This document shows positions 1,201-53,727 of a stretch of DNA of 64,000 bases, piece after piece. The stretch comes from an uncultured Rhodospirillaceae bacterium. GTDB taxonomy: Bacteria; Pseudomonadota; Alphaproteobacteria; MPNO01; UBA830. The position numbers and the translations under genes were made by a program. Where the stretch lies: assembly GCA_964412235.1 (NCBI GenBank), contig CAYPNT010000005.1:5879-69878 (forward strand). The letters run 5' to 3'. Positions within the stretch are counted from its first letter, which is position 1, and each line of letters begins with the position of its first letter. The notes below the pieces were generated by a model. That model saw only the letters and a list, made by a program, of their open reading frames with translations, searched no databases and was not told the origin of the DNA.

Positions 1201-1451
1201 AATGTAATCTTTCTTAATATGTGGCGAGGTTGGTTAACTATAAATATGTCTACAGCTTGTAGTTGATTAAAGACGGTTGATACATACCATAGAAGCTCTT
1301 TTAGGATTTTAATGGCCGCTGTGATCGCCTTGTTATCTTTTTAATGAGAAATCAAAAGCGAAAACCGGCGTTGGATCGACCATAGCTATTTTTTTGGTCA
1401 TAAATTTGTTAAGTTCTTTAGATGCAAATAAAAAAAGTTTGGGAGAAAAAT

Positions 1452-2132
1452 ATGCCGGGAACCGTTACTGAAAGCCCTGTTACTCTGAAAGAATATGGGT
1501 CGATGACCATGCTGGAGCGAGAAGCGATATGGTTAGAGATTTCCGATATTACAGAGGAACAATTTAGAACCCACATGGTGCATGAAAAGGACCGCGAGGC
1601 GGATGTTCCGGCCGTTGGTGCGTATGCACCGGATTTTACAGCAGATGTTTTAGGAGATAACCGACAGAGGACCGGTGATAAGGTAGTTTTATCCGAGCTT
1701 CGAGGAAAACCCGTTGCGATAGCATTTGGGTCGTACACCTGACCCCCATTTCGGGGTAAGGCCGTGCGCCTTAACGAACTTTACAGAAAGTACAAGGACC
1801 AGGTTCAGTTCTATATAATTTACATACGTGAGGCACATCCGGCGGATGGATGGCAAGTTCCTAATAATTTGATTGAAAGCATCATTTATGATGAGCCCTC
1901 GACGGATGAAGAACGAACAGAGGTCGCGTCAGCCTGCCAGATAAACTTGAGTCTTGATATGCCAATGCTAATTGATTCTATCGGTAATGATATTGACAAA
2001 AAGTACGTTGGCCTTCCGATGCGGCAATTTCTTATCGGTGCAGATGGCAAGATCATTTACGCAGGAGACAAGGGACCGTTTGGCTGGAATGATGAGGCTT
2101 TTGAGGAAGAACTTAAGAAGTTAATTAAATAA
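1452..2132 (+). CDS. Iodothyronine-deiodinase-like thioredoxin-fold selenoprotein; in-frame TGA 1740-1742 read as selenocysteine
   Basis: ORFs 1422..1742 and 1764..2132 share one frame and are separated only by TGA plus 7 sense codons. The joined product reads KPVAIAFGSYT-U-PPFRGKAVRLNELYRKYKDQVQFYIIYIREAHPADGW, which matches the deiodinase active-site block (FGSCT-U-PPF ... IYI.EAHP.DGW). The second ORF has no ATG or SD of its own; its listed start is an internal GTG. ATG 1452 has GGGAGA ending 6 nt upstream. ATG 1422 is an alternative start. Confidence 0.8.
1757..1773 (+). promoter_or_regulatory. Candidate bacterial SECIS hairpin (TAAGGC-CGTGC-GCCTTA)
   Basis: A perfect 6-bp stem with a 5-nt loop containing GU starts 15 nt after the TGA, so the loop lies 23-27 nt from the U of UGA. 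A smaller CCCC/GGGG hairpin (1743-1756) lies in between. It was folded by eye only. Confidence 0.5.
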
Positions 2133-2269: not shown

Positions 2270-3742
2270 ATGGCAGGCATGAAAAAATATGAAGCAGACG
2301 TAGCAATAATCGGCTCGGGTGGAGCGGGGATCGCTGCTGGCATCGAAGCAATTGATTCCGGCGCAAAGGTTATCACCGTTGAAAAAGCGGATTTTCCTGG
2401 TGGTGCCGCCATTATTTCAGGCGGTGGTTGTTGCATTGTTGGGTCACCGGTCCAAAAGGCGCTTGGGATTGAAGATAATCCAGATTTAGCTTTTGAAGAT
2501 TGGGTCAATTGGGGCGGTCCGTCGACAGATGCTGTTTGGGCACGCTATTACCTGGAACACTCTCTTCACGATCTATACTACTGGGCCGAAGCACTCGGTG
2601 TTGAGTGGGTTGATATGAAACCACAAGAGGGAAATTCCGTAATGCGTTGGACACGTCCAGTTGGTAACGGGCAGGGTCTAACCCAGACGTTGATTGATTC
2701 CTTCAGATCCAAAGGCGGTCAAATAGTAACGAACACAGAAGTTATCAATATTACTGCAAAAAACGGAAAAGTGGTCGGGTTTACAGGGAGAACGAAAGGC
2801 GGAAACGAAGAGGTAATCGTTAAAAGCAAAGCGGTTGTCGTAACGACGGGTGGTTTCAACTCAAATTTGGATATGGTTTTCGGTGTTCGCCCTGAGTTAA
2901 AAAACTTCAAAGTAATGGAGGGATCGGGTCGGGGTTCCACGGGGGATGGCCATAAAATGGTATCTCGTGTTGGTGGTTATCTCACTCACATGGACCACGT
3001 TTGGTTCTATTGTTACGCGACCCCCGACTACCTTGACCACCAAGGTAAACGCGGTCTCGTGTGCCGGCAAATTCCGGGATACGTTTGGGTCAACCAACAG
3101 GGAAAACGTTTTCACAACGAAGCGCTTTCCGGCGGCAACTCCATGAGTCCAGCAATGTTGGCACAAAACCCTCCACATGCATGGGCAATTGTGGATACCC
3201 CGATGAAATCTCGATTGGAAATTGCTGATCCCTATTACAGGGACGGGGATCAAATCATTCGACAGAAGGTCGAAGAATTACTCCACAATTCACCATTTAT
3301 TAAAAAGGCTGAAACCCTAAAGGAGCTGGCGCACGCTATGGGGGTGGATGAAACGAACTTCTTAGCCGACATAAATGCTTACAACGAAGCAATACAAAAA
3401 GGCTTAGATAGGGAACCAGCATTTGGTAAGCCCCTCGCTCAATCCAAGGCTTTTGACACTCCACCTTATTTTGCAATTCAGTTTTTTCCACTTGCGCGTA
3501 AGAATTTTGGTGGCATAAAGACTGATATTCGTTGCCGTGTTCTTGATAAACACTTCGAACCCATTACCGGCCTATATGGTGCCGGTGAATTATGTGGTAT
3601 GGCCGGCGGCCATATTAATGGTCGTGCGGGGCTAGAGGGTACGATGCTTGGACCTTCTTTATTTAGCGGCAGGGTTGCAGGTGGTTGGGCCGCCAACGAG
3701 GCGGGTTTTGGCGCCGGTTTTGAGGGGAAGCCGAACCGGTAA
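2270..3742 (+). CDS. FAD-dependent oxidoreductase (fumarate reductase / 3-ketosteroid dehydrogenase-like flavoprotein family)
   Basis: The N-terminal DVAIIGSGGAGIAAGIEA is a dinucleotide-binding motif. The C-terminal GLYGAGELCGMAGGHINGRAGLEG is typical of FAD_binding_2-type flavoproteins. The product is 490 aa. Confidence 0.7.
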   Translation: MAGMKKYEADVAIIGSGGAGIAAGIEAIDSGAKVITVEKADFPGGAAIISGGGCCIVGSPVQKALGIEDNPDLAFEDWVNWGGPSTDAVWARYYLEHSLHDLYYWAEALGVEWVDMKPQEGNSVMRWTRPVGNGQGLTQTLIDSFRSKGGQIVTNTEVINITAKNGKVVGFTGRTKGGNEEVIVKSKAVVVTTGGFNSNLDMVFGVRPELKNFKVMEGSGRGSTGDGHKMVSRVGGYLTHMDHVWFYCYATPDYLDHQGKRGLVCRQIPGYVWVNQQGKRFHNEALSGGNSMSPAMLAQNPPHAWAIVDTPMKSRLEIADPYYRDGDQIIRQKVEELLHNSPFIKKAETLKELAHAMGVDETNFLADINAYNEAIQKGLDREPAFGKPLAQSKAFDTPPYFAIQFFPLARKNFGGIKTDIRCRVLDKHFEPITGLYGAGELCGMAGGHINGRAGLEGTMLGPSLFSGRVAGGWAANEAGFGAGFEGKPNR

Positions 3743-3758
3743 CTAAAGGGCTTTATTG

Positions 3759-4874
3759 CTAGCCGGTTTGATGCAGGGGCGTTTTACGCACACCGGCTTG
3801 TTCGAGTCGGGGAAGCACTTCATCTCGGAAGTACGGGAAGTGTTCAATGTAATTTACGAAGCCCATAGCGAAAGCATCGACACCTTGATTGTGTATATTC
3901 AGTAAAAGGTTTGCGACATCGTCAGGATCTCCAACTATCGGATAGGCGCCGTTTCCCCCGGCGGCTCTCTGATTGAGATTCGCGATCAGTTTAGGGGACA
4001 AATTATCAAAGTGCCCTCGGGCAATACGGCCGGTTATTAAATTTTGTGCCGCTTCTTTATCGGCCATCTCGACGGCGTAATAATCGTGATATTCTACTGC
4101 CTCTTTTCTGGTTGATCGACAAACAACATAGCAATTTGTAAAGACACCTATATCGCGCCCATAGCTTTTAGCGGTCAATTTAAGTTCGCCAATATCTGAT
4201 CCGATATTTTCTACCTCGGATCTAATTCCTGTGAACATCATATCGGTATTACGAGCTGCAAAGTCCCGCCCTCGCTCGGAACTCCCAGCACTCACAATTA
4301 GGGGTCGGTTAGTTGAATAGGGCTTTGGTTCTGCGAGAACATTTTGTACGGAATAAAATTCGCCCTCATAGTCGAAGGGTTCCGGCTCCGACCAGGCTCG
4401 GGTTATTATTTCGACCCATTCTTGGCCCTGGTCGTACCGGCGATCATGCTCGTTCAAACTTATCCCGGCCATAGCAAATTCTTTTGGGTTCCATCCGCAC
4501 ACGATGTTGAGACCAAAACGACCCCGTCCGATAAGATCGGCCGTTACCATTTGTTTTGCGGCTACTACTGGATTAAACAGCGCAACATGTACTGTTCCAA
4601 AGGCCATTATTTTTTCGGTTGAGGCCAATATTCCCGCCGCCCAGCTTAAGGTTTCGAGGACGCCACCATTGTGATCCGTTTCTCCGCCGTAACCCCTCCA
4701 TCTCCCAAGTGGCAACAGAAAGTCGAGGCCGGCGTCATCGGCAATCTGTGCTGCTTTTAAATTTTCATCCCATGTTCCATTCCAACGTTCGGGCACTAAC
4801 GTTGCAGCGAGACCACCAGAACAATTAAGGCCAAAAAACCCCAATTTAAGTTTGTTTTGGTCATAAGGGCGCAA
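3759..4874 (-). CDS. LLM-class (luciferase-like) flavin-dependent oxidoreductase
   Basis: 371 aa. The N-terminal KLGFFGLNCSGG and the overall pattern are typical of luciferase-like monooxygenases. It lies 7 nt downstream of the 2OG oxygenase gene on the same strand. Confidence 0.7.
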   Translation of the reverse strand: MRPYDQNKLKLGFFGLNCSGGLAATLVPERWNGTWDENLKAAQIADDAGLDFLLPLGRWRGYGGETDHNGGVLETLSWAAGILASTEKIMAFGTVHVALFNPVVAAKQMVTADLIGRGRFGLNIVCGWNPKEFAMAGISLNEHDRRYDQGQEWVEIITRAWSEPEPFDYEGEFYSVQNVLAEPKPYSTNRPLIVSAGSSERGRDFAARNTDMMFTGIRSEVENIGSDIGELKLTAKSYGRDIGVFTNCYVVCRSTRKEAVEYHDYYAVEMADKEAAQNLITGRIARGHFDNLSPKLIANLNQRAAGGNGAYPIVGDPDDVANLLLNIHNQGVDAFAMGFVNYIEHFPYFRDEVLPRLEQAGVRKTPLHQTG

Positions 4875-4881
4875 ATATTTT

Positions 4882-5838
4882 TCAGTAAGTGCGATCGTAC
4901 ATCTCGCGAAGGTGAGCTTCCACGGTGGTGGGTGGATACTTTGGTGTCTCCCCTTGTTCGAGACAACAATCGAGCGCGACTACTTTATGAGCGAGATTTC
5001 CATTATAGAAAAAAGGTACCGAATAACGCTCCTTTCCAGAGGTGTTGATTACACGATGGAGCGTGGATTGGTATTTATCATTCGTCCATCGCGATATCAT
5101 GTCGGCAAGATTTACGATAAACGTTTCGGGAATTGGAGGGGCATTAATCCAATTATTGTTTCGCGTGCAAATTTGCAACCCACCGTTTGAATCTTGCAGT
5201 AGTATCGTTATACCCCCGAAGTCGGTATGTGCGCCACAACCCTTCTCGCCCGGGTTCGGGTTCGCTGGCTGGGGTGGGTAATGTAGTAATTTCAATGCTG
5301 TTAGTGGCTCGTGACAAAAACCTGAAAAATAGTCGTCTTCAAGTTCTAAGGACAACGCCAAACCGCTCATCAGTAGTTTTCCTAAGGACAGCATTTCGGC
5401 GTAATACCTCATCATGGTTTCTTTAAACCCCACTAGCTCTGTTGGCCATTGGTTGGGTCCAAGATTAAAATTTCCACGTTGCAGGCGAGGATGCCCCAAA
5501 GGAATTTCTTCGCCGATATAAAGTCCTTCCTTTAGGTCTGGTGGGTTGCCGTCTTCCAAAGTTTGACCGCCTAGTGGTTCAAAGCCTCTGTTGTGCGGTG
5601 AATGCGCCATATCAATCTTTTTCTTTTTGTCTTCAGGTAGACAGAAAAACGCCGATGCTTGGGCAAAAACTTCGGCTTGAAGCGCGCGGTCGACCCCATG
5701 GCCGACGACATACATAAAGCCCAGGTTCAAGCAGGCTGTGCGGATTTCAGTGGCAACGGCAGTGCGCGATGAGCGATCGGTGCTCCGGAGCCTCGATACA
5801 TCAATTATAGGCAGCGTGTATTCCAAGGTCTGATTCAC
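4882..5838 (-). CDS. 2-oxoglutarate/Fe(II)-dependent oxygenase (isopenicillin N synthase family)
   Basis: GAHTDFGGITILLQD (HxD), a distal STLHRV His and ERYSVPFF (RxS) together give the classic 2OG oxygenase facial triad and 2OG-binding motifs. Confidence 0.75.
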   Translation of the reverse strand: MNQTLEYTLPIIDVSRLRSTDRSSRTAVATEIRTACLNLGFMYVVGHGVDRALQAEVFAQASAFFCLPEDKKKKIDMAHSPHNRGFEPLGGQTLEDGNPPDLKEGLYIGEEIPLGHPRLQRGNFNLGPNQWPTELVGFKETMMRYYAEMLSLGKLLMSGLALSLELEDDYFSGFCHEPLTALKLLHYPPQPANPNPGEKGCGAHTDFGGITILLQDSNGGLQICTRNNNWINAPPIPETFIVNLADMISRWTNDKYQSTLHRVINTSGKERYSVPFFYNGNLAHKVVALDCCLEQGETPKYPPTTVEAHLREMYDRTY

Positions 5839-5967
5839 ACTTCGTTTATCTAATTAGGGCTAAATTGCCCAACTACTCCATAATTAAAAACGATATTCGA
5901 GAAAACGTCACCCCTTATGGTGCCCTGCAATGATTTCTCGTAAAACTCACCCAAAGAACTTACTGGA

Positions 5968-7200
5968 ATGAGAATGTCTAGGACGTGGTTACAAAGTCCC
6001 TACGTGGTCCTGTTTTGTGCTGTTGGTATTGTTTTTTTCGCCTACGGTAGTCGCCAGAGCTTCGGTATATATCTTAAACCGATTACGGCGGATCTTGGGT
6101 GGGGCCGAGAGAGTTTATCACTCGTTTTTGGTGCCCAAGCACTTATTTATGGCATGGCTGCCCCATTTGTTGGAGCAATTGCCGATAAGTGGGGCCCTAT
6201 TAAGGTCATGCTAGTTTCCTCATTTATGTATTCCGCGGGCATATATTTCATGACCGAGTCAACTACACAGGCCGGTATGCTTCTGAGTGCAAGTTTTCTG
6301 GGTGGTGTTGGATCGGCCGGCTGTGCGTTGTCTCTTGTCCTCGCTGTTGCCAGCCGCGTCGCTCCCGAGGAAAAGCGTGGTTTGTGGCTTGGAATTATCA
6401 CTTCTGGCGGAACAGGCGGTCAGCTTGTCCTTGTTCCCGCGGGTCAGTTAATAATGAATGAGCACGGTTGGGTGGTTGCCTTGATTGCGTTGGCGCTTTT
6501 CGTTCTCATGATCCTTCCCTTAGCATTAACGTTGGGCGCGTCGGCAGGAGACGCCGTTAACAGCAAGAAGGAGGGCCAAAGTCTTAAACAGGCTCTATAT
6601 GAGGCAAAGCAGCACCGAGGTTTCTGGCTTCTGGTTCTCGGTTTTTTTACATGTGGTTTTCAAGTTCAATATATCAACAGTCACCTCCCGGCATACCTTA
6701 CAGACATGCAACTAGACCCTATTATCGGCGCGACAGCTATTTCAGTGATCAGTCTTTTTAATATGATGGGCACCTGGTGCGCTGGTTGGTTGGGCGATCG
6801 ATACCGAAAGAAAAATGTCCTTGCTTTGATTTACTTTTTTCGGTCGCTGTTGTTCATGATTTTTATTTTGTGTCCCTTAAGTGCCTGGTCAGTCTATATT
6901 TTTTCGGCTTGCATAGGACTTCTCTGGTTGGCAACCGTGCCTCTCACATCGGGGATTGTCTTTGGGATGTTTGGTCCACGGTATATGGCAACTCTTTACG
7001 GAATTGTTTTTCTCGGCCATCAGGTCGGCAGTTTTTCAAGTGCATGGTTGGGTGGGTTTATCTGGGACCAGACAGGTTCATACCATATTGCCTGGTGGAT
7101 CATTATCATCGGCGGCGCGCTCGCATCGCTCCTGCATTGGCCTATCGATGATCGCTCAGTTGAGGAAGTCTTAAATGATAGAAAAAATATCGTCGTTTGA
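5968..7200 (+). CDS. MFS transporter
   Basis: 410 aa and highly hydrophobic, with about 12 predicted helices judged by eye. It has an MFS-like loop (GAIADKWGP). It is divergent from the oxygenase operon. Confidence 0.7.
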   Translation: MRMSRTWLQSPYVVLFCAVGIVFFAYGSRQSFGIYLKPITADLGWGRESLSLVFGAQALIYGMAAPFVGAIADKWGPIKVMLVSSFMYSAGIYFMTESTTQAGMLLSASFLGGVGSAGCALSLVLAVASRVAPEEKRGLWLGIITSGGTGGQLVLVPAGQLIMNEHGWVVALIALALFVLMILPLALTLGASAGDAVNSKKEGQSLKQALYEAKQHRGFWLLVLGFFTCGFQVQYINSHLPAYLTDMQLDPIIGATAISVISLFNMMGTWCAGWLGDRYRKKNVLALIYFFRSLLFMIFILCPLSAWSVYIFSACIGLLWLATVPLTSGIVFGMFGPRYMATLYGIVFLGHQVGSFSSAWLGGFIWDQTGSYHIAWWIIIIGGALASLLHWPIDDRSVEEVLNDRKNIVV

Positions 7201-7203
7201 CCA

Positions 7204-7962
7204 TCAAAGCATGCGTCTAAACATTGCAAATATTTGTTCCCAGTCGCTGTTTGTTGCCCGTGGATTATAAACGTCGCGGTCCGGTATAGCATAGCCGTGT
7301 TCAGTTTCTTCATGAATGGTGAATCTTGCTGTTGCTTCGCCTCCTGTAAAAGACGACCTCAAAGCTTCAACAACGTCTGATGGCGTAAATGGATCATTTG
7401 CTCCGATACCAAAGTAAATTTCGCCCCTGATGTTCTTTGAGACGCGGTGGGGGGAACCCGGTTGGGAGGTTACAAGCGATGTACCGTGGAAGCTCGCTGT
7501 TGCCCTAAAGACGTCTGAAAGCGATGCGGCTACGTTGACGACGTGTCTGCCACCCATACAGTAGCCAAAGCAGCCAGCGAACCCATCTGATACACAATCC
7601 ATTTGACGTAACTGAGTTATTAGTGCAGCAGTGTCACTGACAACCATCTCATCTGTAAGATGGGCGTTGTAATCTAGCAGTTCGTTGCGATCTTCATCCG
7701 TGAGTATAGAAATTGATTTGGTTCGGCCGTCTGCATGCCGATGGTCAAAATGATTATTTCCTGATCGGTAATAAAGGCTGGGCGCGGCGCAGACGAATCC
7801 GTTTTCTGCAACGAAACGTGCAATGTCACGCAGTTGGTTGCGCATTCCCCAAATATCCATGTAAAGAATGATTACTGGAAAGGGCCCCTGGCCAGCGGGT
7901 AAAGCCACAAAAGTTGGCATAACACCGTTTCGAGTTGTGACGTTTATCGAGACTTCTGGCAT
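7204..7962 (-). CDS. Dienelactone hydrolase family protein
   Basis: 252 aa. It has a nucleophile elbow with Cys (GYCMGG) and the overall DLH pattern (PVIILYMDIWG, FHG). Confidence 0.7.
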   Translation of the reverse strand: MPEVSINVTTRNGVMPTFVALPAGQGPFPVIILYMDIWGMRNQLRDIARFVAENGFVCAAPSLYYRSGNNHFDHRHADGRTKSISILTDEDRNELLDYNAHLTDEMVVSDTAALITQLRQMDCVSDGFAGCFGYCMGGRHVVNVAASLSDVFRATASFHGTSLVTSQPGSPHRVSKNIRGEIYFGIGANDPFTPSDVVEALRSSFTGGEATARFTIHEETEHGYAIPDRDVYNPRATNSDWEQIFAMFRRML

Positions 7963-8043
7963 TATGCGTTCCGTGTTTACTTGTTGTTATTCTATGTATT
8001 TATCAGTTATTGCGTTCAATCAATAGTTTGAGGAGAAAGACTG

Positions 8044-8871
8044 GTGACGCAAACTAGCACAATAAAAGATAACACGATTGAAGGTGTGTTGACGTTTGCT
8101 GTGGATAATGGCGAAAAAATTGTCAACGAAACAATGGCCGAGGGCGACATGAGCCGTCGCCGTACCGGCGAAGTTGAGAAAAGGGCCATGAAAATACGAA
8201 ATGGCCGCACCCTTCGGCATACTTTTGATATAGAGGCCCAAGGGTTTGAATTTTTAGATCATTACACGGGAATGATCGATTTTTTTGATACCGAAGAGTT
8301 GAAATCTGTCTATTACAAAGAGATCGAGGCCCTCGTACAACAACGGACTGGTGCTGCACGAGTGCATGTCTTTGATCATACACTGAGGTCGGGTGATGGG
8401 GCAACACGAAACGAGAGATTGCTGAGAGAACCTGTTGCCCGGGTGCACAATGATTATACAGACTGGTCCGGGCCTAATAGAGTACGTGATTTGCTTCCGG
8501 ATGAGTCAGAAGATTTGCTTTGTCGAAGGTTCGCAATTGTTCAGGTGTGGCGTGCGATCGGCAGTCCAATTGAAGCAGACCCTCTGGCAATATGTGATGC
8601 GCGAACGCTAGTTAAACACGACCTTTTGGTGTCGGAACGTCGCTATCCAAACCGTATCGGACAGACCTATCAGGTTGCATACAACCCCGATCAAGATTGG
8701 TACTACTTCCCTAAGATGACGCGTGATGAAGCTTTGATTTTCAAGGTTTTTGACTCTGCGATGGACGGCCGCGCTCGATTTACGGCGCATTCGGCCTTTT
8801 CGGATCCTCACAGCCCAGAAAATGCACTGCCGCGAGAAAGCATTGAGATGCGTACTTTTGCATTCTTTTGA
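8044..8871 (+). CDS. CmcJ/NvfI-family oxidoreductase-like protein
   Basis: GTG start preceded by GAGGAG. The blocks RVHNDYT, FAIVQVWR, PLAICDARTL, WYYFPKMTRDEALIFK and RESIEMRTFAFF match my memory of this family. No search was run. Confidence 0.55.
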   Translation: MTQTSTIKDNTIEGVLTFAVDNGEKIVNETMAEGDMSRRRTGEVEKRAMKIRNGRTLRHTFDIEAQGFEFLDHYTGMIDFFDTEELKSVYYKEIEALVQQRTGAARVHVFDHTLRSGDGATRNERLLREPVARVHNDYTDWSGPNRVRDLLPDESEDLLCRRFAIVQVWRAIGSPIEADPLAICDARTLVKHDLLVSERRYPNRIGQTYQVAYNPDQDWYYFPKMTRDEALIFKVFDSAMDGRARFTAHSAFSDPHSPENALPRESIEMRTFAFF

Positions 8872-9158
8872 ACTAGGGATATGGTTTTCAACAGAGCATC
8901 TCCGGATTGCTACTGAAAACATTGACCACCTCCGGGTGCTGGACGGTGATGAGTATTGTCTTTAGTTCGGCTTATTTGAGGGCCCCACAGGTGCGACAGT
9001 TCAACCAGGGCACCCAATTACCCCCTACTAGGGGCCGACAAATAGTTTTTCCAGAGGGGGCAGGGTGGTCGAGACCGATATTTCCCGCTGGCTTGTATAA
9101 CTTTGCCTTGTGCGCCGCCGACGCATATAAAACCCCTTGTATAAATGGAGTGTTACCG

Positions 9159-10826
9159 ATGGATGGCATTGCCGGGCAAAGGTCCTATCGTGATCTGCAA
9201 GAGCACATAGCGGAACTAGAAAAACGCGATTTGCTCCACGTTATCGATCATCCTGTCAACAAGGATACTGAAATGTCCGCGTTAGTTCGTTGGCAATTTC
9301 GAGGTGGCTTGCGAGAAGAAGATCGAAAGGCCTTTCTCTTTACAAATGTCACCGACTCCCAGGGACGCAAATATGATATTCCCGTGGTCATTGGAGCGCT
9401 AGCCGCCAATCAGGATATCTATGCGACCGGCATGGATGCGGCTGTTGAAGAGATTGCCGCTAAATGGCAAGCCGCAATTTCCAAACCTATTGCTCCCAAA
9501 TTGCTCAATGAGGCACCGTGTCAAGACGTTGTTATTGAAGGAAATGACTTGTTGAAGGAAGATGGTGGCCTCGTCCGATTGCCTATACCGCTCTCTACGC
9601 CAGGGTTTGATTCCTCTCCCACATTAGCCGCTACAAACGTGATAACCCGCAATCCAGATACTGGCACTCAAAATATGGGTACCTATCGTGCAGGTCTCAA
9701 ATCATCTAACCGCCTTGTCGTGCGCATGGCGACCCGAGTGGGCGGGGCGGAGGGTTACATGCATTGGCAAACGCACAAGTCTCGCGGAGAAAAATTGCCG
9801 TGTGCCATAGTGGTTGGGTGTCCGCCATATGTCGCATTCATGGGTCCGCAAAAACTCCCTGTCGGTGTTGAAGAATTGCACGTCGCGGGTGGCCTGGCTG
9901 GACAAGCCATCAACGTGGTGCGTGCTCGAACCGTCGACTTAGTGGTACCCGCTGAAGCAGAGCTCGTAATAGAAGGCCTCGTTGATACAGAAATGCTCGA
10001 GCCCGAAGGTCCATTTGGTGAAAGCCATGGCCATGTTGCGTTGGAAGAGTTGAATTTGCCTATGCATGTAACGGCCATTACGCACCGGAAGAAAGCGGTA
10101 ATTCCCTCCTACATTTCGCAAGTTGCGCCATCAGAAAGTTCCGTAATCAAACGCGTCGCATATGAACCGTTATTTCTCGCCCATTTGCGAGATCATTTGG
10201 GGATAAAGGGCATACGAAAAGTTCAATTACATGAGCCTCTTACGGGATTACTTCGTGTTACAATTATTTCTGTTGATCCGGAGACGCCGAGGACCGAGGT
10301 GTGGCGTGCGTTATACGGCGCTGCTAGCTTCAAAGGCGATTGCGGAAAAATTACCATCGCCGTTAATGAAGATATCGACGCCGACAATGCCGACGCTGTT
10401 TTGTGGGCGATGGCATACCGCCTCAACCCTGCTGAGGATGTTGAGGTTTTGCCGCATCGCGGGCAGGGTCACGGACCTAAGCGTGAGACATATGGTGAAG
10501 AGGATTCCACCCTTTTAATTGATGCTACGATGAAAGCGCCTATGCCGCCCCTGGCACTGCCTACAAAGCCCTATATGGAGGCTGGGAAGGAGCTCTGGGA
10601 AAAACTTGGACTTCCCACGCTTCGTCCCGAGTCTCCGTGGCACGGATATTCTCTTGGCGATTGGTCAAAATCATGGACAGAGGCGGCCGAACGCGCAACT
10701 GCGGGTGACTGGCCGGAGAACGGCCGTCGTACGTTGCAGAGACAGGTTCCCGCAGATGTTAAACCGGAGACATCCGTGCGCGAGGTTGAAGACGGATGGA
10801 AAGATGAGCTGGAATGGAAAAAATAG
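9159..10826 (+). CDS. UbiD-family (prFMN-dependent) decarboxylase, paralogue 1
   Basis: The ORF is open from 8907, but ATG 9159 has GGAG 8 nt upstream and aligns with the start of the paralogue at 53728. It has the UbiD signature LEPEGPFGESHGH and conserved blocks (RWQFRGG, VVGCPP). It carries about 60 extra C-terminal residues that the paralogue shares. Confidence 0.8.
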   Translation: MDGIAGQRSYRDLQEHIAELEKRDLLHVIDHPVNKDTEMSALVRWQFRGGLREEDRKAFLFTNVTDSQGRKYDIPVVIGALAANQDIYATGMDAAVEEIAAKWQAAISKPIAPKLLNEAPCQDVVIEGNDLLKEDGGLVRLPIPLSTPGFDSSPTLAATNVITRNPDTGTQNMGTYRAGLKSSNRLVVRMATRVGGAEGYMHWQTHKSRGEKLPCAIVVGCPPYVAFMGPQKLPVGVEELHVAGGLAGQAINVVRARTVDLVVPAEAELVIEGLVDTEMLEPEGPFGESHGHVALEELNLPMHVTAITHRKKAVIPSYISQVAPSESSVIKRVAYEPLFLAHLRDHLGIKGIRKVQLHEPLTGLLRVTIISVDPETPRTEVWRALYGAASFKGDCGKITIAVNEDIDADNADAVLWAMAYRLNPAEDVEVLPHRGQGHGPKRETYGEEDSTLLIDATMKAPMPPLALPTKPYMEAGKELWEKLGLPTLRPESPWHGYSLGDWSKSWTEAAERATAGDWPENGRRTLQRQVPADVKPETSVREVEDGWKDELEWKK

Positions 10827-10856
10827 GGTAGTCGCGAAAACATAAGGGATTCCAAC

Positions 10857-11342
10857 ATGAATGGAGCAGAAAGACGAGACTTTGTCCGGAAACACCGGAC
10901 GGCGGTGTTCGGTTATCCACGAAAGGAACACGGTCCCTCTATGTCTTGTGTATATTATGTGATGGATGGCGAAGACATTCTCGTCTCATCCATGTTGGGC
11001 CGAGCTAAGCCCAAAGCTGTTACTCGGGACCCTCGTGTTTCACTATGTATTCTCGATGAGAAATGGCCATTGACGTACATTACAGTATACGGAAATGCTA
11101 CTGTGGAAGAGCGAGGCGGAGACGATTTACTTATTGCTGTGTGCGAACTCATGGCTGAGCAGGTCATGCCGCACGATGAACGAGAAAAGCTTAGAAAACT
11201 TGCGATTGAGGAAGAACGGTGCGTTATCCGAATAGTCCCCGAAACGACCTTTGAAACACCCCCTCGACACGTTCACACCCCCGATGATGTTGACACGTTA
11301 TCCCATTGGCTCGGCAATACTTTGCCATGGAATTCGGCATGA
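10857..11342 (+). CDS. Pyridoxamine 5'-phosphate oxidase (PPOX)-like FMN-binding split-barrel protein
   Basis: 161 aa. Its pattern (FVRKHRTAVFGYPRKEHGPSMSCVYYVMDGEDILVSS ... VSLCILDE) resembles PPOX-class small flavoproteins. The stop overlaps the next start (ATGA). Confidence 0.55.
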   Translation: MNGAERRDFVRKHRTAVFGYPRKEHGPSMSCVYYVMDGEDILVSSMLGRAKPKAVTRDPRVSLCILDEKWPLTYITVYGNATVEERGGDDLLIAVCELMAEQVMPHDEREKLRKLAIEEERCVIRIVPETTFETPPRHVHTPDDVDTLSHWLGNTLPWNSA

Positions 11343-11863
11343 GTGGCCCTGTTGCGCGTGAAGATTACTCTAAACGAATTTTTAATAAGCTGGCGGATGC
11401 AGGCGTCACTCTGTTCTCTTACGTTCCTGATTTCGGGAATGCTGAGATCATTAATTTGGCCGAGGAAGATAACAGAACGACTGTGGCTCTGCTTTCCAGC
11501 GAGCAAGAGGGCGTAGCGCTCAGCGCAGGTGCCGATTTAGTGAATGGGCGCGCTGTTTTACTTATGCAATCCTCCGGGGTCGGTAATTGTGTCAACATGC
11601 TGTCACTTGTTAAGGCCGGGCGTTTTCCCCTCCTCATGATTGTGACAATGCGCGGAGACTATGGGGAGCAGAACCCATGGCAATATCCGATGGGCCAAGC
11701 AGTTGAACCAGTTTTGGAAGCAATGGGAGTGCAATGCCTATGGGTGCGAAGGGTCGCCGATTTAGACGACGCGCTTGATGCAGCCATTTCCGCTGTTTTC
11801 ACAGCCGGACAGGGGGTGGCTTTGATTCTGTCACAAAAATTAATTGGCGCGAAGGTCTTTTAA
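11339..11863 (+). CDS. Sulfopyruvate decarboxylase alpha-subunit-like protein (split TPP enzyme, PYR domain)
   Basis: The start ATG overlaps the upstream stop (ATGA). The blocks FSYVPD, SEQEGVALSAGADL, LLMQSSGVGN and PLLMIVTMRGDYGEQNPWQ match the ComD-type N-terminal TPP domain. Confidence 0.65.
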   Translation: MSGPVAREDYSKRIFNKLADAGVTLFSYVPDFGNAEIINLAEEDNRTTVALLSSEQEGVALSAGADLVNGRAVLLMQSSGVGNCVNMLSLVKAGRFPLLMIVTMRGDYGEQNPWQYPMGQAVEPVLEAMGVQCLWVRRVADLDDALDAAISAVFTAGQGVALILSQKLIGAKVF

Positions 11864-11864
11864 A

Positions 11865-12479
11865 ATGGTTGGTCCTACGTCCGTTGGAATGATCGACCGC
11901 ACGAGTATTTTGCCTCAATTATTTGCAGACCCTAATGACTATTTGATTATTACGGGGCTTGCGGGTGCCGCCAAGGATGCAGCCTCTTGGACTGGTGATG
12001 CCGATAACTTATTAACATTTGGGGGTGCGATGGGGGGCGCTCTTCCGACCTCACTCGGGACTGCTTTATGTGCTCCTGAAAGGAACGTTTTGGTGATCAC
12101 GGGTGACGCAGAACTCTTAATGAGTGCGGGCGCGCTGGCCACCACGGCATCGGCTCGCCCAGCCAACTTATCAATTGTGTGTATTGATAATGCCCAACAT
12201 GGCGAAACAGGTGGACAACCTAGTCATACGGCTATGCAGACTAACTTGTCATTGTTGGCCGAGGGAGCAGGAATACCATCGGTTATGACGTTATCGGCTC
12301 CTGAAAAGTTAGAAGAGGCGCGTCGGTTTTTGAAGGAAAAGCCGGGTCCTCGCTTCCTGTGTGTTCGCGTGAGGCCCGGCCCCCCATCGGATTATAAACG
12401 GGATTGGGATTTGGTTCATTGTCGTGTGAGATTTAAAGCAGCACTTATTTCAACTGAAGACAGACAAACAAAAAGATAA
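11865..12479 (+). CDS. Sulfopyruvate decarboxylase beta-subunit-like protein (TPP-binding PP domain)
   Basis: ATG lies 1 nt after the upstream stop; TTG 11844 is an alternative. The TPP motif is GDAELLMSAGALATTASARPANLSIVCIDN. Confidence 0.65.
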   Translation: MVGPTSVGMIDRTSILPQLFADPNDYLIITGLAGAAKDAASWTGDADNLLTFGGAMGGALPTSLGTALCAPERNVLVITGDAELLMSAGALATTASARPANLSIVCIDNAQHGETGGQPSHTAMQTNLSLLAEGAGIPSVMTLSAPEKLEEARRFLKEKPGPRFLCVRVRPGPPSDYKRDWDLVHCRVRFKAALISTEDRQTKR

Positions 12480-49231: not shown

Positions 49232-50119
49232 GTGGAAACTATAAATATTCAGTTTACTTTGTTCTCGGCGTTTTATTCGCCGCTGATTTCAACGTTTTCC
49301 GCCGGATTTCTCCAGGAGGAGGGGCTGAATCCTCAATGGACCGTCTCACCACCCGGCGTGTCAGCGATCGCAGCTCTGGAAGATGGGTCGGCGCATGTTG
49401 TCCAGTCAGCTCTAAGCCAGGGTTTCGCGCCTCTCTCTAAAGGTCAACGTCCCAGCGTTGTCCATTTTGCTCAAATTAATGAAATGGATGGTTTCTTTAT
49501 AAGCGCTCGCGATGCTGATGGCGATTTTAGTTGGGATAAACTGGAAGGCTCTGATGTTGTAACTTTTTCCGGCGGGCAGCCGTTGGCCATGTTCAAATAT
49601 GCTTGTCATAAAGCAGGGATAGATTTTAACAAAATTAATCTTATTCATCCCGGTGGTGCTGCTGATATTGACGAGGCCTTTCGGGCAGGCACTGGTGATT
49701 ATGTGCAGCAACAAGGTCCATTTCCCCAGCAGTTGGAGGCCGACGGGGTGGCGTCGATTGTTGCGCAATCCGGACCATTGATCGGACCCGTTGGTTTTTC
49801 AAGTCTTGCCGCAAGGCCGGATTGGTTGAAAACCGAAATGGCTGAGCGATTTATGCGGGCATACCGTAAGACAAGAATCTACATGAATGAAACGCCCGCC
49901 GCTGAAATAGCGGCGGCTGAAAAACCGTATTTTCCAAATATTGATGAAGCTGTTCTTACTAAATGTATTGCGTCTTACCAGGACCTTGGTACATGGACCC
50001 CACACGTAGAGATTACCCCTTTAGTCTTCGACGTTGTTCTGGACGTATTTGAACACTTTGGGACACTTTCAGAACGGTACAGATGGGAACAGGTGTGTGT
50101 GAACCCACCCGGTAGTTGA
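49232..50119 (+). CDS. NMT1/THI5-like (NitT/TauT substrate-binding-protein fold) protein without signal peptide
   Basis: GTG start with GAGGTG 7 nt upstream. An in-frame TGA 9 nt upstream excludes any N-terminal extension. The protein begins directly with the first beta-strand (INIQFTLFSAFYSPL). Confidence 0.55.
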   Translation: METINIQFTLFSAFYSPLISTFSAGFLQEEGLNPQWTVSPPGVSAIAALEDGSAHVVQSALSQGFAPLSKGQRPSVVHFAQINEMDGFFISARDADGDFSWDKLEGSDVVTFSGGQPLAMFKYACHKAGIDFNKINLIHPGGAADIDEAFRAGTGDYVQQQGPFPQQLEADGVASIVAQSGPLIGPVGFSSLAARPDWLKTEMAERFMRAYRKTRIYMNETPAAEIAAAEKPYFPNIDEAVLTKCIASYQDLGTWTPHVEITPLVFDVVLDVFEHFGTLSERYRWEQVCVNPPGS

Positions 50120-50128
50120 GAGTTGTCA

Positions 50129-51028
50129 ATGGACAACGCGGTGGGGTTGAAGCTGCTTCCACGACAACCGCTATTTGCGGTGGAATTAGGTGGAATAAAT
50201 CTCAGGCAAACGTTTAGCAAGGAGCAGATCGACCAAATTGTCGCCGTTTTACATAAATTTGCGGTTGGTATTGTCAGGCATGACGCGCCACTAACGGATG
50301 ACGAACATATTGCTTTTAGTCTGCTCCTCGGGCCCATCGAGAAAAAGAATATCTTGAAAGTTTCCAATAGTGGAAAAAACCGTCTCGCTCGCTTTGAAAT
50401 TATAGACCAAAGCAATCTTGATGAAACTGGGAATATTTATTCAGACACCGATCGTCGCCTCGCCTTTAAGCGAGCCAACCGGCTTTGGCATACGGATATG
50501 TCGTTTCATTCAAATCGTGCCACATACTCTTTGCTTTCTGCAGTTTTATTGCCGTTTGATGGTGGTCCAAAAACTGAGTTTGCGGATATGCGTGCCGCGT
50601 ATGACGCCCTGCCACAAAAAATGAAGAAAAGTTTAACCGGTCTGGTTTCAGAGCATTCTTACTGGTATTCCCGCGTCGCGGGTGGAGGACCGAAGGCATC
50701 TCTGGAAGAACTTGCCTCGAGGCCACCCGCACAACATTTTCTCGTGCATGAGCGCGGGGGCCGAATGGCTCTGTACTTGGCATCGCATGCATCACAGATC
50801 GTAGGGTGGCCACCCGATGAAAGCCGTGATCTTTTAGATGAACTAATAACTTTTGCGACCCAACAGCAGTTCATCTATGAACATAGTTGGAATACCGGGG
50901 ACGTGGTAATATGGGATAATCTATTAACCATGCACCGAGCGCGACCCTTTGATGATCGGGTACAGGTTCGGGACGTGCGGCGTACAACCTGCAGGGAAAT
51001 TGATCCTTTATTACTTGAAGGAAAGTAA
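50129..51028 (+). CDS. TauD/TfdA-family 2-oxoglutarate-dependent dioxygenase
   Basis: It has LWHTDMSF (HxD), YSLLSAV, WDNLLTMHRA (distal His) and an RxxxR tail. TTG 50123 is an alternative start. Confidence 0.75.
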   Translation: MDNAVGLKLLPRQPLFAVELGGINLRQTFSKEQIDQIVAVLHKFAVGIVRHDAPLTDDEHIAFSLLLGPIEKKNILKVSNSGKNRLARFEIIDQSNLDETGNIYSDTDRRLAFKRANRLWHTDMSFHSNRATYSLLSAVLLPFDGGPKTEFADMRAAYDALPQKMKKSLTGLVSEHSYWYSRVAGGGPKASLEELASRPPAQHFLVHERGGRMALYLASHASQIVGWPPDESRDLLDELITFATQQQFIYEHSWNTGDVVIWDNLLTMHRARPFDDRVQVRDVRRTTCREIDPLLLEGK

Positions 51029-52634: not shown

Positions 52635-53609
52635 TCAATATACGTTTAAAACAATTTTTCCAAAATGCTTATTTGCTTTCATGTATTCGACTGCTTCGGC
52701 TACATCGTCTAGGGAAAATTCGCAGTCGACCGGTAGGCTTAGCGCGCCTGCTTCAACATCAGACCATAGGTCAGCTTGCATCGTTCGAACTATAGCGCGT
52801 ACCTCTTCGATGGTTCTCGTTCGAAAAGTGACGCCGACGTAATCAATACGTCGCTGCGCATGGAGGTCGAAATTGAAATCTCCTGAAAAACCGCCTAATC
52901 GCCCCACGTTTACAATGCGACCGAGCACACGGGTGGCCGCCAGGTTGGCGTTGGCCGCATAGCCGGAAATTTGGTCTACGATTAGATCTAAACCTGCCCC
53001 ACCTGTTGCATGAAGAACCTCCTCGACCCAAGTTTCATCGCGAGAGTCCACGGCTAAATCCGCACCAAATTCTCTAAGACGGCCGCGCCGTTCAGAATTT
53101 GTTGAAGAACCTACGACCAACTTCGCGCCGAGCCTCTTGGCTATTTGCAGGCCCATCAGGCCAACGCCAGTACTAGCACCTTGGATCATTACGCTTTCGC
53201 CCCGTTGAAAACGACCAGCGGTCACTATAGCGTTGTGCATTGTTTGTAATGCCACTGGCAGAGTAGACGCCTGTGCCCATGTCATGTTGTTTGCGGGGAT
53301 GGGAACTGTTCTACCCCAGTCGGCCACCGCATATTGTCCCCAGCCTGATGTCCCCGTGCACATAACTCGGTCACCAGGTTTCACATTAGTGACCTCGTTG
53401 CCCATATCTACAACCTCTCCGACATACTCGATCCCTGGGATCGTCCCGGGCCCACCATTCCGGCCATGTGCCATACCGCTTGCTACCATTGAGTCGGCCC
53501 TGTTCATTCCACAGGCATGAACCTTGATTAAAACCTCGTTTGATTTGGGTGTTGGTTCCGCTGTGTCACCCACTTTAATACCATTGTCACCTACCATCGC
53601 CGCTTTCAT
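52635..53609 (-). CDS. Medium-chain dehydrogenase/reductase (NADPH:quinone oxidoreductase-like)
   Basis: 324 aa. It has GESVMIQGASTGVGL (a nucleotide-binding motif) and an N-terminal GMNRAD block. Confidence 0.8.
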   Translation of the reverse strand: MKAAMVGDNGIKVGDTAEPTPKSNEVLIKVHACGMNRADSMVASGMAHGRNGGPGTIPGIEYVGEVVDMGNEVTNVKPGDRVMCTGTSGWGQYAVADWGRTVPIPANNMTWAQASTLPVALQTMHNAIVTAGRFQRGESVMIQGASTGVGLMGLQIAKRLGAKLVVGSSTNSERRGRLREFGADLAVDSRDETWVEEVLHATGGAGLDLIVDQISGYAANANLAATRVLGRIVNVGRLGGFSGDFNFDLHAQRRIDYVGVTFRTRTIEEVRAIVRTMQADLWSDVEAGALSLPVDCEFSLDDVAEAVEYMKANKHFGKIVLNVY

Positions 53610-53727
53610 TTTTGCTCCTCAACAACAAATTTCAGACAATCGTTCCAACTGCGAAGAAAAACTTTCTCGCAGGCCCTTGCCGGACTGTGCCAGCATCCCC
53701 ATCATGACCTTCGGAGAGGGGACGTCA

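Follow-up and report, generated by a model that had tools for sequence, protein, structure and literature searches.

The window analyzed here, a 64,000-nt stretch of the genome of an uncultured Rhodospirillaceae bacterium (assembly GCA_964412235.1, contig CAYPNT010000005.1, positions 5,879–69,878, forward strand), carries two plus-strand ORFs, 1422–1742 and 1764–2132, that share a common frame and are separated by TGA 1740–1742 and seven sense codons. On comparative evidence, the two ORFs are one gene, in which UGA 1740–1742 encodes selenocysteine 97 and translation ends at TAA 2130–2132. The peptide across the UGA reads GKPVAIAFGSYT-U-PPFR, and the center of the read-through protein is AIAFGSYT-U-PPFRGKAVRLNELYRKYKDQVQFYIIYIREAHPADGW. 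The gene most likely extends from 1452 to 2132 and specifies 226 aa: a putative Shine-Dalgarno-like GGGAG (1441–1445, plus strand) lies six nt 5′ of ATG 1452, and the orthologues, as well as the public gene calls for the N-terminal ORF of 96 aa, begin at MPGTV, which corresponds to this ATG. Conservation among orthologues does not extend to the ten codons that begin at 1422, and ATG 1422 is the less likely start. The first-pass annotation had joined the two ORFs into a single thioredoxin-fold protein of 226–236 aa; the joined translation and the Pfam matches bear out the union, while the putative ribosome-binding motif, the orthologue starts, and the public calls favor the lower figure of that range. 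Public records of the same locus are split into two hypothetical ORFs of 96 aa and 122 aa, where the corrected gene model restores a complete enzyme, and one public pipeline translated an 83%-identical orthologue (P0001) with the TGA as W. A promoter and terminator scan around the deiodinase-like gene returned no candidates.

The read-through protein matches the Pfam T4_deiodinase profile (PF00837) at 85.8 bits (E = 3.7e-24), well above the gathering cut-off of 27 bits, with residues 95–233 of the 236-aa read-through aligned to profile positions 102–235 of 237. AhpC-TSA is also matched above its cut-off (33.8 versus 26 bits), Redoxin matches as well, and the T4_deiodinase and AhpC-TSA alignments both span the TGA. 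Mouse Dio2 (9h48) and Dio3 (4tr3), as deposited in the PDB, align at E ~1e-16 and place the TGA opposite the catalytic Sec, a residue replaced by Cys in both crystal constructs; the earlier claim that the TGA falls exactly on this position is thereby confirmed, and the comparison with the family profile and with Cys-containing homologues that had been proposed alongside it likewise sets the UGA at the catalytic position, with 11 bacterial Cys homologues recovered. The next family in the sequence comparison reaches E = 1.6e-05. Structurally, an AF2 model of P0001 that has W in place of the Sec (pLDDT 86) finds its best PDB fold matches in Dio2 (TM 0.80) and Dio3 (TM 0.73), followed by ResA- and Prx-type structures. 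Deiodinases are by a clear margin the best matches in both sequence and fold. ResA/TlpA proteins and peroxiredoxins (AhpC-TSA, Redoxin) share the thioredoxin fold, the N-terminal β-hairpin extension, and a nucleophile placed where helix α-1 begins, but the window protein lacks CxxC, contains the deiodinase insertion and EAHPxDGW, and matches these families far more weakly in sequence. A further match, to the NCBIfam hypothetical equivalog NF038285 ('deiodinase_rel', 347 positions), scores 164.4 bits (E = 4.6e-48) under a curated cut-off of 250. This match is confined to model positions 174–340, and the window protein therefore lacks the large N-terminal part of NF038285; the two share the C-terminal deiodinase domain but differ in subfamily and architecture.

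The active-site block F92-G-S-Y-T-U97-P-P-F100 (1725–1751, plus strand) aligns to the FGSxT-U/C-PPF segment of Dio2 and Dio3. Across 75 Sec-form loci, S94, T96, P99, and F100 are near-invariant, as is the PPFR tetrapeptide directly behind the TGA; the segment running from PPFR to YIREAHP is conserved throughout these loci, and the residues at the selenocysteine read U-P-P-F, U-G-P-F, or U-P-P-Y in every one. Further downstream, Y124-I-R-E127-A-H129-P-A-D-G-W134 (1821–1853, plus strand) forms a deiodinase-specific motif that opens the Dio insertion at the loop-D edge and aligns to Dio2 Y157/E160/H162/W167. Column counts over 86 loci show Y124, E127, the adjoining Ala, H129, and the following Pro to be invariant and W134 to be near-invariant. 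Taken as a unit, the Ser-x-Thr-Sec block and the Tyr/Glu/His/Trp relay/loop-D edge (S94, T96, U97, Y124, E127, H129, and W134) are invariant or near-invariant. Cys162 (1935–1937, plus strand), the sole other Cys of the protein, sits 65 residues downstream of U97 and is conserved as Cys in 72 of 75 Sec-form and in all 11 Cys-form loci, a pattern that makes it a candidate resolving cysteine.

Comparison with vertebrate Dio1–3 (4tr3, 9h48) brings out both the shared catalytic-domain fold (TM 0.73–0.80) and FGSxT-U-PPF block and several departures from it. The shared residues comprise the relay/loop-D edge Ser, Thr, Tyr, Glu, His, and Trp, whose roles in Dio2 have been described (PMC11592359), together with the basic 'clamp' residue Lys207, which occupies the position of Dio3 Arg275 and Dio2 Lys241 (PMC11592359) and is not conserved across the bacterial family. 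In contrast, the distal relay His (Dio2 His182, Dio3 His219) is replaced by Pro149, with Pro near-invariant in the bacterial family, and the distal resolving Cys (Dio3 Cys239, Dio2 Cys205) is replaced by Met169 of a DMPML segment, in a column where Cys is not conserved, while the window protein carries Cys162. Both of these positions were mapped by hand from the Dio alignments, and column composition was counted over the loci. The window protein also differs from Dio1–3 at its N-terminus, where inspection of the sequence finds no long hydrophobic stretch that could serve as a transmembrane anchor; instead, a charged stretch of some 55 residues is predicted to be helical and soluble. Thyroid hormones would not be expected as its substrate.

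The assignment of UGA 1740–1742 to selenocysteine 97 draws on the composition of this column among relatives. In 79 loci from species-representative genomes, which cover at least 10 phylum-level groups, the column holds TGA in 68 and a Cys codon (TGC or TGT) in 11; TGC and TGT are the sole alternatives, and TGG is absent from all homologues compared. The sequence beyond the stop, which the first-pass annotation had singled out as a check, proves to be retained, since both the TGA and the downstream protein sequence are kept in these 68 species representatives. The TGA is also found in loci L001–L006, and four assemblies of this population, each independent of the others, carry it as well. Selection against amino acid change is comparable on the two sides of the codon (dN/dS 0.052 upstream and 0.059 downstream), and Cys-form homologues are single chains. 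Overall, species-representative genomes contain at least 592 relatives. Within the window, TGA terminates 14 of 45 long ORFs and is therefore not reassigned genome-wide. A scan of the window for other TGA-split open frames yielded 24 candidates, none convincing besides the deiodinase-like gene; the split pair at 50117–50119, considered as a second selenoprotein gene, has the look of two neighboring genes that share a frame.

A bacterial SECIS hairpin (1758–1772, plus strand) lies inside the coding sequence and begins 15 nt past the UGA. Its stem pairs AAGGC (1758–1762) with GCCUU (1768–1772) around an apical loop, CGUGC (1763–1767), that begins 20 nt past the UGA. The first-pass annotation had described a 6-bp stem with a 5-nt loop at 1757–1773. 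The hairpin itself is present, but its conserved pairs number five: U1757–A1773 can lengthen the stem by one pair in the window sequence and forms in 13 of 36 distinct orthologous sequences, and RNAalifold applied to 39 orthologues predicts exactly the five pairs 1758–1762/1768–1772. The covariation that had been suggested as a check is found in the same alignment as compensatory changes, with stem pairs alternating among AU/CG/UG/UA and among GC/UA/UG/GU. The covariation score is 0.304, compared with 0.133 in shuffles, of which 0 in 500 reach the observed value, and it stays at or below 0.081 when the hairpin position is slid. A second hairpin type, present in other phyla, also covaries and places its loop at +17 nt rather than at the +20 nt seen in Alphaproteobacteria. 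A hairpin of at least 5 bp with a loop G occurs at 71 of 75 TGA loci and at none of the 11 Cys loci, compared with 34% of synonymous recodings, and family-wide folding z-scores are lower for TGA loci than for Cys loci (Mann-Whitney p = 0.013). By itself, the window hairpin is short and not statistically exceptional: single-sequence folding gives z = -0.99 against dinucleotide shuffles and z = -1.4 against synonymous recodings, and 24% of synonymous recodings of the window gene form some hairpin of at least 5 bp at the right place. Its significance thus derives from the comparison with orthologues and not from the window sequence alone.

Outside this stem, UUCG (1750–1753) could pair with CGAA (1775–1778) to form a possible lower stem spanning 1750–1778 on the plus strand. 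Although 82% of its cells are paired, it displays no two-sided pair change and is not predicted by RNAalifold; such weak pairing probably arises as a side effect of codon conservation at F-R and N-E. Rfam at gathering thresholds returns no match and no SECIS family over the whole window, and a permissive search around the site returns a chance CRISPR-repeat match (E = 9.6) alone, again with no SECIS family. In the SECIS of E. coli fdhF, the SelB-binding hairpin lies in the coding sequence immediately 3′ of the UGA and presents a small apical loop with G and U. The window element resembles it in its in-gene position close after the UGA, its small loop with G and U, and a stem that compensatory changes maintain, but its stem is much shorter (5 bp), no bulged U is seen, the sequence is unrelated, and the deiodinase-like family uses two hairpin registers (+20 nt and +17 nt). 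In vertebrate Dio genes, by contrast, the SECIS is a kink-turn element of the 3′-UTR, and not a SelB-type hairpin in the coding sequence as in the window.

Genes for Sec synthesis and insertion are found beside the deiodinase-like gene in relatives rather than in the window. Specifically, an NCBIfam scan of size-matched ORFs and tblastn searches with SelD from E. coli and with SelA and SelB from Alphaproteobacteria both yielded only noise, with no selA, selB, or selD in the window; no tRNA-Sec is found in the 64 kb or in 15 related loci scanned, and neither sel genes nor tRNA-Sec are found in the 8.5 kb further upstream of the window. Sec decoding in this particular genome is therefore an inference. 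In nine related alphaproteobacterial loci, selA (TIGR00474, 566–580 bits) adjoins the deiodinase-like gene, and eight of the nine also carry selB (TIGR00475, 380 bits); these linked loci include L009 and L015, whose proteins share 71% and 68% identity with that of the window. At several loci, selA begins within ~80 nt of the deiodinase-like stop codon, and in some Alphaproteobacteria of marine origin the deiodinase-like gene apparently heads an operon that also contains selA and selB. After removal of antisense open frames, only selA and selB recur in the gene neighborhood among loci; the downstream genes of the window are common to L007 only.

On this evidence, positions 1452–2132 very probably form one gene for a deiodinase-like selenoprotein whose UGA is read as Sec by way of the SECIS hairpin, a confidence that covers the selenoprotein and SECIS reading and excludes the substrate. 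Every one of the first-pass checks that was carried out supports this reading. During translation, SelB carrying Sec-tRNA(Sec) would bind the mRNA hairpin 1758–1772, and UGA 1740–1742 would therefore be read as selenocysteine 97 instead of as a stop, a recoding that the comparative evidence shows. Were the TGA a nonsense mutation or an assembly error, leaving a 96–106-aa fragment or no product, the public 96-aa and 122-aa ORFs and the lack of Sec machinery in the window would be as expected; this explanation is effectively refuted by a TGA that occupies the same column in 68 species of many phyla with Cys as its sole replacement, by purifying selection that is equally strong past the stop (dN/dS 0.059), by the identical TGA in four independent assemblies, and by a covarying hairpin limited to TGA forms. 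Decoding of the UGA as something other than Sec, whether as Trp (code 4/25) or, through a suppressor or Sec-like tRNA, as Cys or some other residue, is highly improbable. The rendering of the TGA as W in P0001 points in that direction, and the window cannot show tRNA-Sec or selA; however, W-translation in L002 also overran the genuine terminal TGA and entered sequence that is not conserved, TGA serves 14 of the window's 45 long ORFs as their normal stop, and the homologues offer TGC or TGT at the column and never TGG. Additionally, the hairpin position and its small G-containing loop are those expected of SelB-dependent elements, and relatives carry selA and selB next to the gene.

Production of two separate polypeptides, the second initiated at GTG 1764 and perhaps associating with the first as a split thioredoxin fold, can hardly be credited. 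GTG 1764–1766, the 'start' of the second ORF, is a Val codon inside the apical loop of the hairpin. The first-pass view that the downstream half has no ATG or Shine-Dalgarno sequence of its own needs qualifying in that a G-rich stretch just 5′ of the GTG (GGGG 1753–1756 and AAGG 1758–1761) could pass for a weak ribosome-binding site. This stretch, however, is not conserved in orthologues, whereas the seven codons from the TGA to the GTG (PPFRGKA) are conserved as protein, with PPFR near-invariant. Moreover, Cys-form homologues are single-chain, and the break would hit the catalytic residue itself.

For the selenoprotein reading, the product would be a soluble, cytoplasmic 226-aa protein with a thioredoxin/peroxiredoxin-like deiodinase fold, in which Sec97 is expected at the start of helix α-1 within a Ser94/Thr96/Tyr124/Glu127/His129/Trp134 network, as in vertebrate deiodinases. 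In the cycle we propose, the selenolate would attack the electrophilic atom of a small substrate, the oxidized selenium would be resolved as a selenenyl-sulfide with Cys162, and a cellular thiol system would re-reduce the enzyme. As to chemistry, we tentatively prefer reductive dehalogenation of halogenated phenolics, that is, a deiodinase-type reaction on a non-thyronine substrate. Two observations weigh against this preference: the distal relay His is replaced by Pro149, and the distal Cys of Dio2 and Dio3 is not conserved. Against the reading as a whole, the clamp residue Lys207 varies across the family, and the neighborhood is conserved for selA and selB only. Almost as likely is the same recoding in the service of a peroxiredoxin- or ResA-like selenol oxidoreductase acting on peroxide, disulfide, or another redox substrate, with no carbon–halogen role. 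Matches to Redoxin and to AhpC-TSA (33.8 bits, cut-off 26), the ResA- and Prx-type structures as next-best folds, a conserved U97…C162 pair that resembles an atypical 2-Cys peroxiredoxin, and the missing distal relay His all favor such a peroxide or disulfide reductase, as does the setting of the gene in L030–L033, where an AhpD-like gene and a further Trx-like selenoprotein of the UxxC type adjoin it; most bacterial selenoproteins are, moreover, homologues of thiol oxidoreductases, and the discoverers of the family proposed a redox role (PMC1088965, PMC2398784). Against it, YIxEAHPxDGW and the insertion are invariant here and absent from the Prx and ResA families, and deiodinases match best (E = 1e-16 versus 1.6e-05 for the next family).

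Beyond the dehalogenation we prefer, a broader and rather unlikely proposal is that the enzyme is a principal client of the Sec machinery in selA/selB-linked lineages and a selenium-dependent reductive dehalogenase of natural organohalogens of the sea, for instance phenolics that carry iodine or bromine. The selA/selB operon arrangement would fit the client role, and the dehalogenase role would agree with how strictly the active-site motif specific to deiodinases is retained. If true, bacteria would possess a class of dehalogenase with no relation to the corrinoid reductive dehalogenases, and its activity would be the ancestral one that was recruited for the deiodination of thyroid hormones. 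A literature search found no experimental characterization of a bacterial deiodinase homologue; the paper on a Dictyostelium dechlorinase (PMC3205185) deals with a member of the GST family and not with the deiodinase homologue. The Sec-dominated family, with its many phyla, two covarying SECIS types, invariant deiodinase motif, Cys162, and selA/selB linkage, provides material for experiment, and bacterial deiodinase homologues are among the few selenoprotein families common to bacteria and animals.

The window gene adds a member to a bacterial selenoprotein family known since 2005 and leaves the known picture of that family unchanged. The first-pass mention of deiodinase-like entries in marine metagenomic selenoproteome surveys is correct: the 'deiodinase-like' family (PF00837) is known from Sargasso Sea and GOS metagenomes (Zhang, Fomenko and Gladyshev 2005, PMC1088965; Zhang and Gladyshev 2008, PMC2398784). 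It was first reported from the Sargasso Sea in 2005, with only a generic redox role suggested (PMC1088965), and it was described with bacterial SECIS elements (PMC1088965, PMC2398784). The window gene agrees with these accounts in its in-frame UGA at the catalytic position, its SECIS hairpin a short way 3′ of the UGA, whose small loop contains a G, the coexistence of Cys homologues, and its marine origin. It extends beyond them in the selA/selB linkage and in the breadth of at least 592 relatives, neither of which the literature consulted mentions. It also differs in its redox motif: two reviews covering the family list UxxC (PMC9312934, PMC13188914), whereas U-P-P-F, U-G-P-F, or U-P-P-Y, as in vertebrate deiodinases, is found in the window protein and in every one of the 75 Sec-form loci, with the conserved second Cys 65 residues downstream, a contrast drawn with the reviews' listing and not with their example sequences.

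The gene at 1452..2132 (+) is very probably a selenoprotein in which UGA 1740-1742 is read as Sec, and the interpretation of the split gene as a selenocysteine-containing deiodinase homologue was judged real and correctly read. The ORFs at 1422..1742 and 1764..2132 share a frame, with TGA 1740-1742 and seven sense codons between them, and the read-through frame of 236 codons contains one internal stop, as the first-pass annotation had proposed. Its range of 226-236 aa for a single read-through protein narrows to the shorter form, with ATG 1452 the most likely predicted start: GGGAG (1441-1445) lies six nt 5′ of this codon, orthologue N-termini read MPGTV, and the ten codons upstream vary among orthologues. 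Initiation here yields a protein of 226 aa with Sec as residue 97; in public gene calls the N-terminal ORF is 96 aa. GTG 1764, the apparent start of the second ORF, is a Val codon inside the apical loop of the downstream hairpin.

Searches with the joined protein, carrying Cys in place of the stop, match Pfam T4_deiodinase (E = 3.7e-24; 85.8 bits, cut-off 27), with weaker matches to AhpC-TSA and Redoxin; all three alignments span the stop. Among sequences of solved structures, mouse Dio2 (9h48, E = 1.1e-16) and Dio3 (4tr3, E = 1.5e-16) rank first, followed by the ResA family (1.6e-05). Both deiodinase alignments bear out the predicted catalytic position of the TGA, placing it on the catalytic Sec (Cys in the crystal constructs) within the block FGSxT-U-PPF. 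The NCBIfam model deiodinase_rel reaches 164 bits against a cut-off of 250 through the C-terminal part alone, which indicates a different, shorter architecture. The gene thus joins an already known family: the marine selenoproteome surveys mentioned in the first-pass annotation do hold such entries, with four Sec and six Cys sequences and a bacterial SECIS in the 2005 Sargasso Sea analysis (PMC1088965) and 22 Sec and 21 Cys sequences in the GOS analysis (PMC2398784). The family is also listed in reviews of 2022 and 2026 (PMC9312934, PMC13188914), and the reported EF-hand fusion form (PMC9402790) recurs among the homologues here (P0017, P0023). Both reviews list its motif as UxxC (PMC9312934, PMC13188914), whereas all 75 Sec-form loci carry U-P/G-P-F/Y with no Cys at +3; either the review examples come from a different subfamily or the entry in the table is imprecise. 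Our literature search found no experimental work on a bacterial member of the deiodinase family.

The AlphaFold2 model of an 83%-identical orthologue, P0001 (mean pLDDT 86.2, pTM 0.81), retrieves the catalytic cores of Dio2 (TM 0.80, on target) and Dio3 (TM 0.73) as the first Foldseek matches in the PDB, with ResA-type oxidoreductases next. Across 86 loci, residues S94, T96, U/C97, P99, F100, R101, Y124, R126, E127 and A128, and further along H129, P130, W134, P149, R155, C162, D175, Y185, P189, R191 and G208-P209, are invariant or nearly so. Mapped by hand through the structure-sequence alignments, with the residue discussion of PMC11592359, the Ser/Thr/Tyr/Glu/His relay and the Trp at the edge of loop D of Dio2/Dio3 are all kept, whereas the distal relay His182 of Dio2 is replaced by Pro149 and the distal Cys of both enzymes is not retained. 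The position of Dio3 Arg275 and Dio2 Lys241 is occupied by Lys207, which is not conserved family-wide. Cys162, the sole other Cys, is kept in 72 of 75 Sec forms and 11 of 11 Cys forms, and so is the obvious candidate to resolve a selenenyl intermediate. The first 55 residues form a charged, helical N-terminus without a membrane anchor.

Several homologues depart from this pattern. The metagenomic Cys forms P0008-P0011 carry a signal peptide and an additional Cys at -2 within the motif FGSCT-C-PPF but no equivalent of Cys162, while Planctomycetota genomic Cys forms (e.g. L053, L056, L059) read FGNFT-C-GPF, with Asn in place of Ser94, a residue that is otherwise invariant; the Sec forms appear to be cytoplasmic. 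These sequence features suggest different compartments and different resolving chemistry for Sec and Cys forms. The full-length metagenomic protein P0004 (42% identical) has Ala at the Sec/Cys column and Thr for the first Pro (FGSYT-A-TPF), and may be an inactive or functionally different variant.

The TGA is identical in four independent metagenome assemblies of the same population (L088-L091), whose genes differ by at most one substitution, and in six of six metagenomic relatives, located via truncated C-terminal ORF calls, it occupies the same column, flanked on either side by conserved sequence. At least 592 relatives emerged when one genome was scanned for each GTDB species; in the best 80 of these loci, of which 79 were readable, the catalytic column holds TGA in 68 and TGC or TGT in 11. 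The Sec forms belong to Alphaproteobacteria (28), Acidobacteriota (8), Planctomycetota (7), Actinomycetota (6), Chloroflexota (4) and several further groups; nearly all Cys forms are from Planctomycetota. Relative to L007, the closest species representative (85% identical), dN/dS is 0.052 over 55 codons before the TGA and 0.059 over 110 codons after it. Since 14 of the 45 long ORFs in the window end with TGA, the codon has not undergone genome-wide reassignment. Given its recurrence in independent assemblies and relatives, the constraint on both sides and its use as a stop, we reject a pseudogene, an assembly error, global TGA reassignment and two separate genes. The P0001 record (L002:230-931) is itself mistranslated rather than split: the public pipeline rendered the TGA as Trp, placing W at the Sec position, and read on past the gene's own TGA stop into a spurious tail, WTRDSKI.

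Alignment of the coding sequence downstream of the TGA is gap-free, which allows the RNA to be compared column by column. For the window clade (type A), represented by its top-ranked loci by protein similarity, with pairing playing no part in selection, RNAalifold returns exactly one helix, columns 19-23 with 29-33, corresponding to 1758-1762 paired with 1768-1772 (+) around the loop CGUGC. Among 36 distinct sequences, the outermost pair (19-33) is AU in 16, CG in 12, UG in 4 and UA in 2; pair 20-32 is AU in 27 and GU in 9; pair 21-31 is GC in 33, UA in 2 and AU in 1; pair 22-30 is GC in 27, UA in 6, UG in 2 and GU in 1; and the closing pair (23-29) is CG in all 36. The stem covaries with a score of 0.304; column shuffles give 0.133 ± 0.013, none of 500 reaching 0.304, and sliding the partner columns gives at most 0.081. 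Some of the compensatory changes substitute an amino acid on one side (GCC Ala to UCC Ser) and are synonymous third-position changes on the other (CGC to CGA/CGG), as predicted by selection on RNA, not protein. The hairpin first described with six base pairs is present, with only five of the six conserved. No double changes are seen in a putative lower stem (1750-1753 with 1775-1778), which probably arises as a by-product of conserved codons.

Other phyla carry a different hairpin (type B), four nt nearer the UGA, with a 7-bp stem, a loop such as GGC, GGU or GUC, and recurrent CG-to-GC flips (covariation 0.496 versus 0.126 shuffled; 79.8% of cells paired versus 54.4%). Hairpins with at least five contiguous pairs, a G in the loop and the right distance from the UGA occur in 71 of 75 TGA loci and in none of the 11 Cys loci; among synonymous recodings their frequency is 34% overall, and 24% for the window gene. 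As a single sequence the window hairpin is unremarkable (z = -0.99); its meaning comes from comparison. Its small loop, containing G/U, begins 20 nt 3′ of the UGA, a position and loop in keeping with fdhF, the paradigm of the bacterial SECIS. Both agree with bacterial SECIS features (PMC1088965).

The 64-kb window contains no tRNA, and neither NCBIfam on size-matched ORFs nor tblastn with E. coli SelD and alphaproteobacterial SelA and SelB finds a SelA, SelB or SelD homologue in it; the 8.5 kb upstream likewise holds none of the three. Clustering of neighbours over all related loci returns selA (TIGR00474, 566 and 580 bits, cut-off 268) and selB (TIGR00475, 380 bits, cut-off 242) as the sole recurrent neighbours, placing close relatives in Sec-decoding genomes. 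Specifically, selA adjoins the deiodinase-like gene in nine related alphaproteobacterial loci, followed by selB in eight. In L004, L028 and L030-L034, selA lies downstream on the same strand, its first ATG 9-77 nt past the deiodinase-like stop, which suggests an operon; in L009 (Hyphomicrobiaceae; 71% identity to the window protein) the selB-selA pair adjoins the gene divergently (L009:1392-2831, -), and in L015 (68% identical) one gene intervenes (L015:3155-4585, +). We found no mention of this linkage in published accounts of the family.

In L030-L033, a second TGA-interrupted gene, conserved in all four loci, lies upstream on the opposite strand (L032:2362-2860, -, TGA 2713-2715; TGA at 2706-2708 in L030 and L031 and 2196-2198 in L033). 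It encodes a Trx/Prx-like protein with the motif LFYRGHW-U-PYCRRQL (UxxC), followed 3′ of the UGA by a 5-bp hairpin with a 5-nt loop (AGUUA or AGUUG). An adjoining AhpD/YciW-like ORF weakly matches NF053654, 'YciW-related (seleno)protein', and together with selA/selB these genes form a predicted small selenoprotein island.

Comparative evidence shows UGA 1740-1742 as a predicted site of SelB-type recoding by the hairpin at 1758-1772, and the product as a predicted enzyme of deiodinase fold with Sec at the nucleophile position. The selenolate would attack the substrate, Cys162 would resolve the oxidised selenium, and a thiol system would re-reduce the enzyme. Reductive dehalogenation of halogenated phenolics is a tentative functional assignment, favoured because the invariant features here are those that set deiodinases apart from peroxiredoxins. 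The main rival, a peroxiredoxin-like redox role, would accord with the missing distal His and with the Trx-like and AhpD-like neighbours in L030-L033, and is only slightly less probable. A joint reading that couples the selA/selB operon linkage with a possible selenium-dependent dehalogenase role is unlikely as a whole.

The window is rich in catabolic oxidoreductase and hydrolase genes (43-1200, 2270-12479, 53524-55353), including a CocE/NonD (Peptidase_S15/PepX_C) hydrolase, an FAD_binding_2 flavoprotein, a luciferase-like (LLM) monooxygenase, a 2OG-Fe(II) oxygenase, a dienelactone hydrolase and two UbiD-family decarboxylases, with an MFS transporter, a PNPOx-like protein and a split TPP enzyme also in the neighbourhood. 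This catabolic context is common only to the window and L007, and so weighs little in favour of the dehalogenase reading. At ≥90% identity, proteins of the neighbourhood group with surface sequences from Tara Oceans, and the closest species representatives are labelled uncultured Rhodospirillaceae. Elsewhere in the window, ORFs 49232-50119 and 50123-51028 (+), about 300 aa each, share a frame with TGA 50117-50119 and one codon between them, and look like two adjacent genes, not a second selenoprotein.
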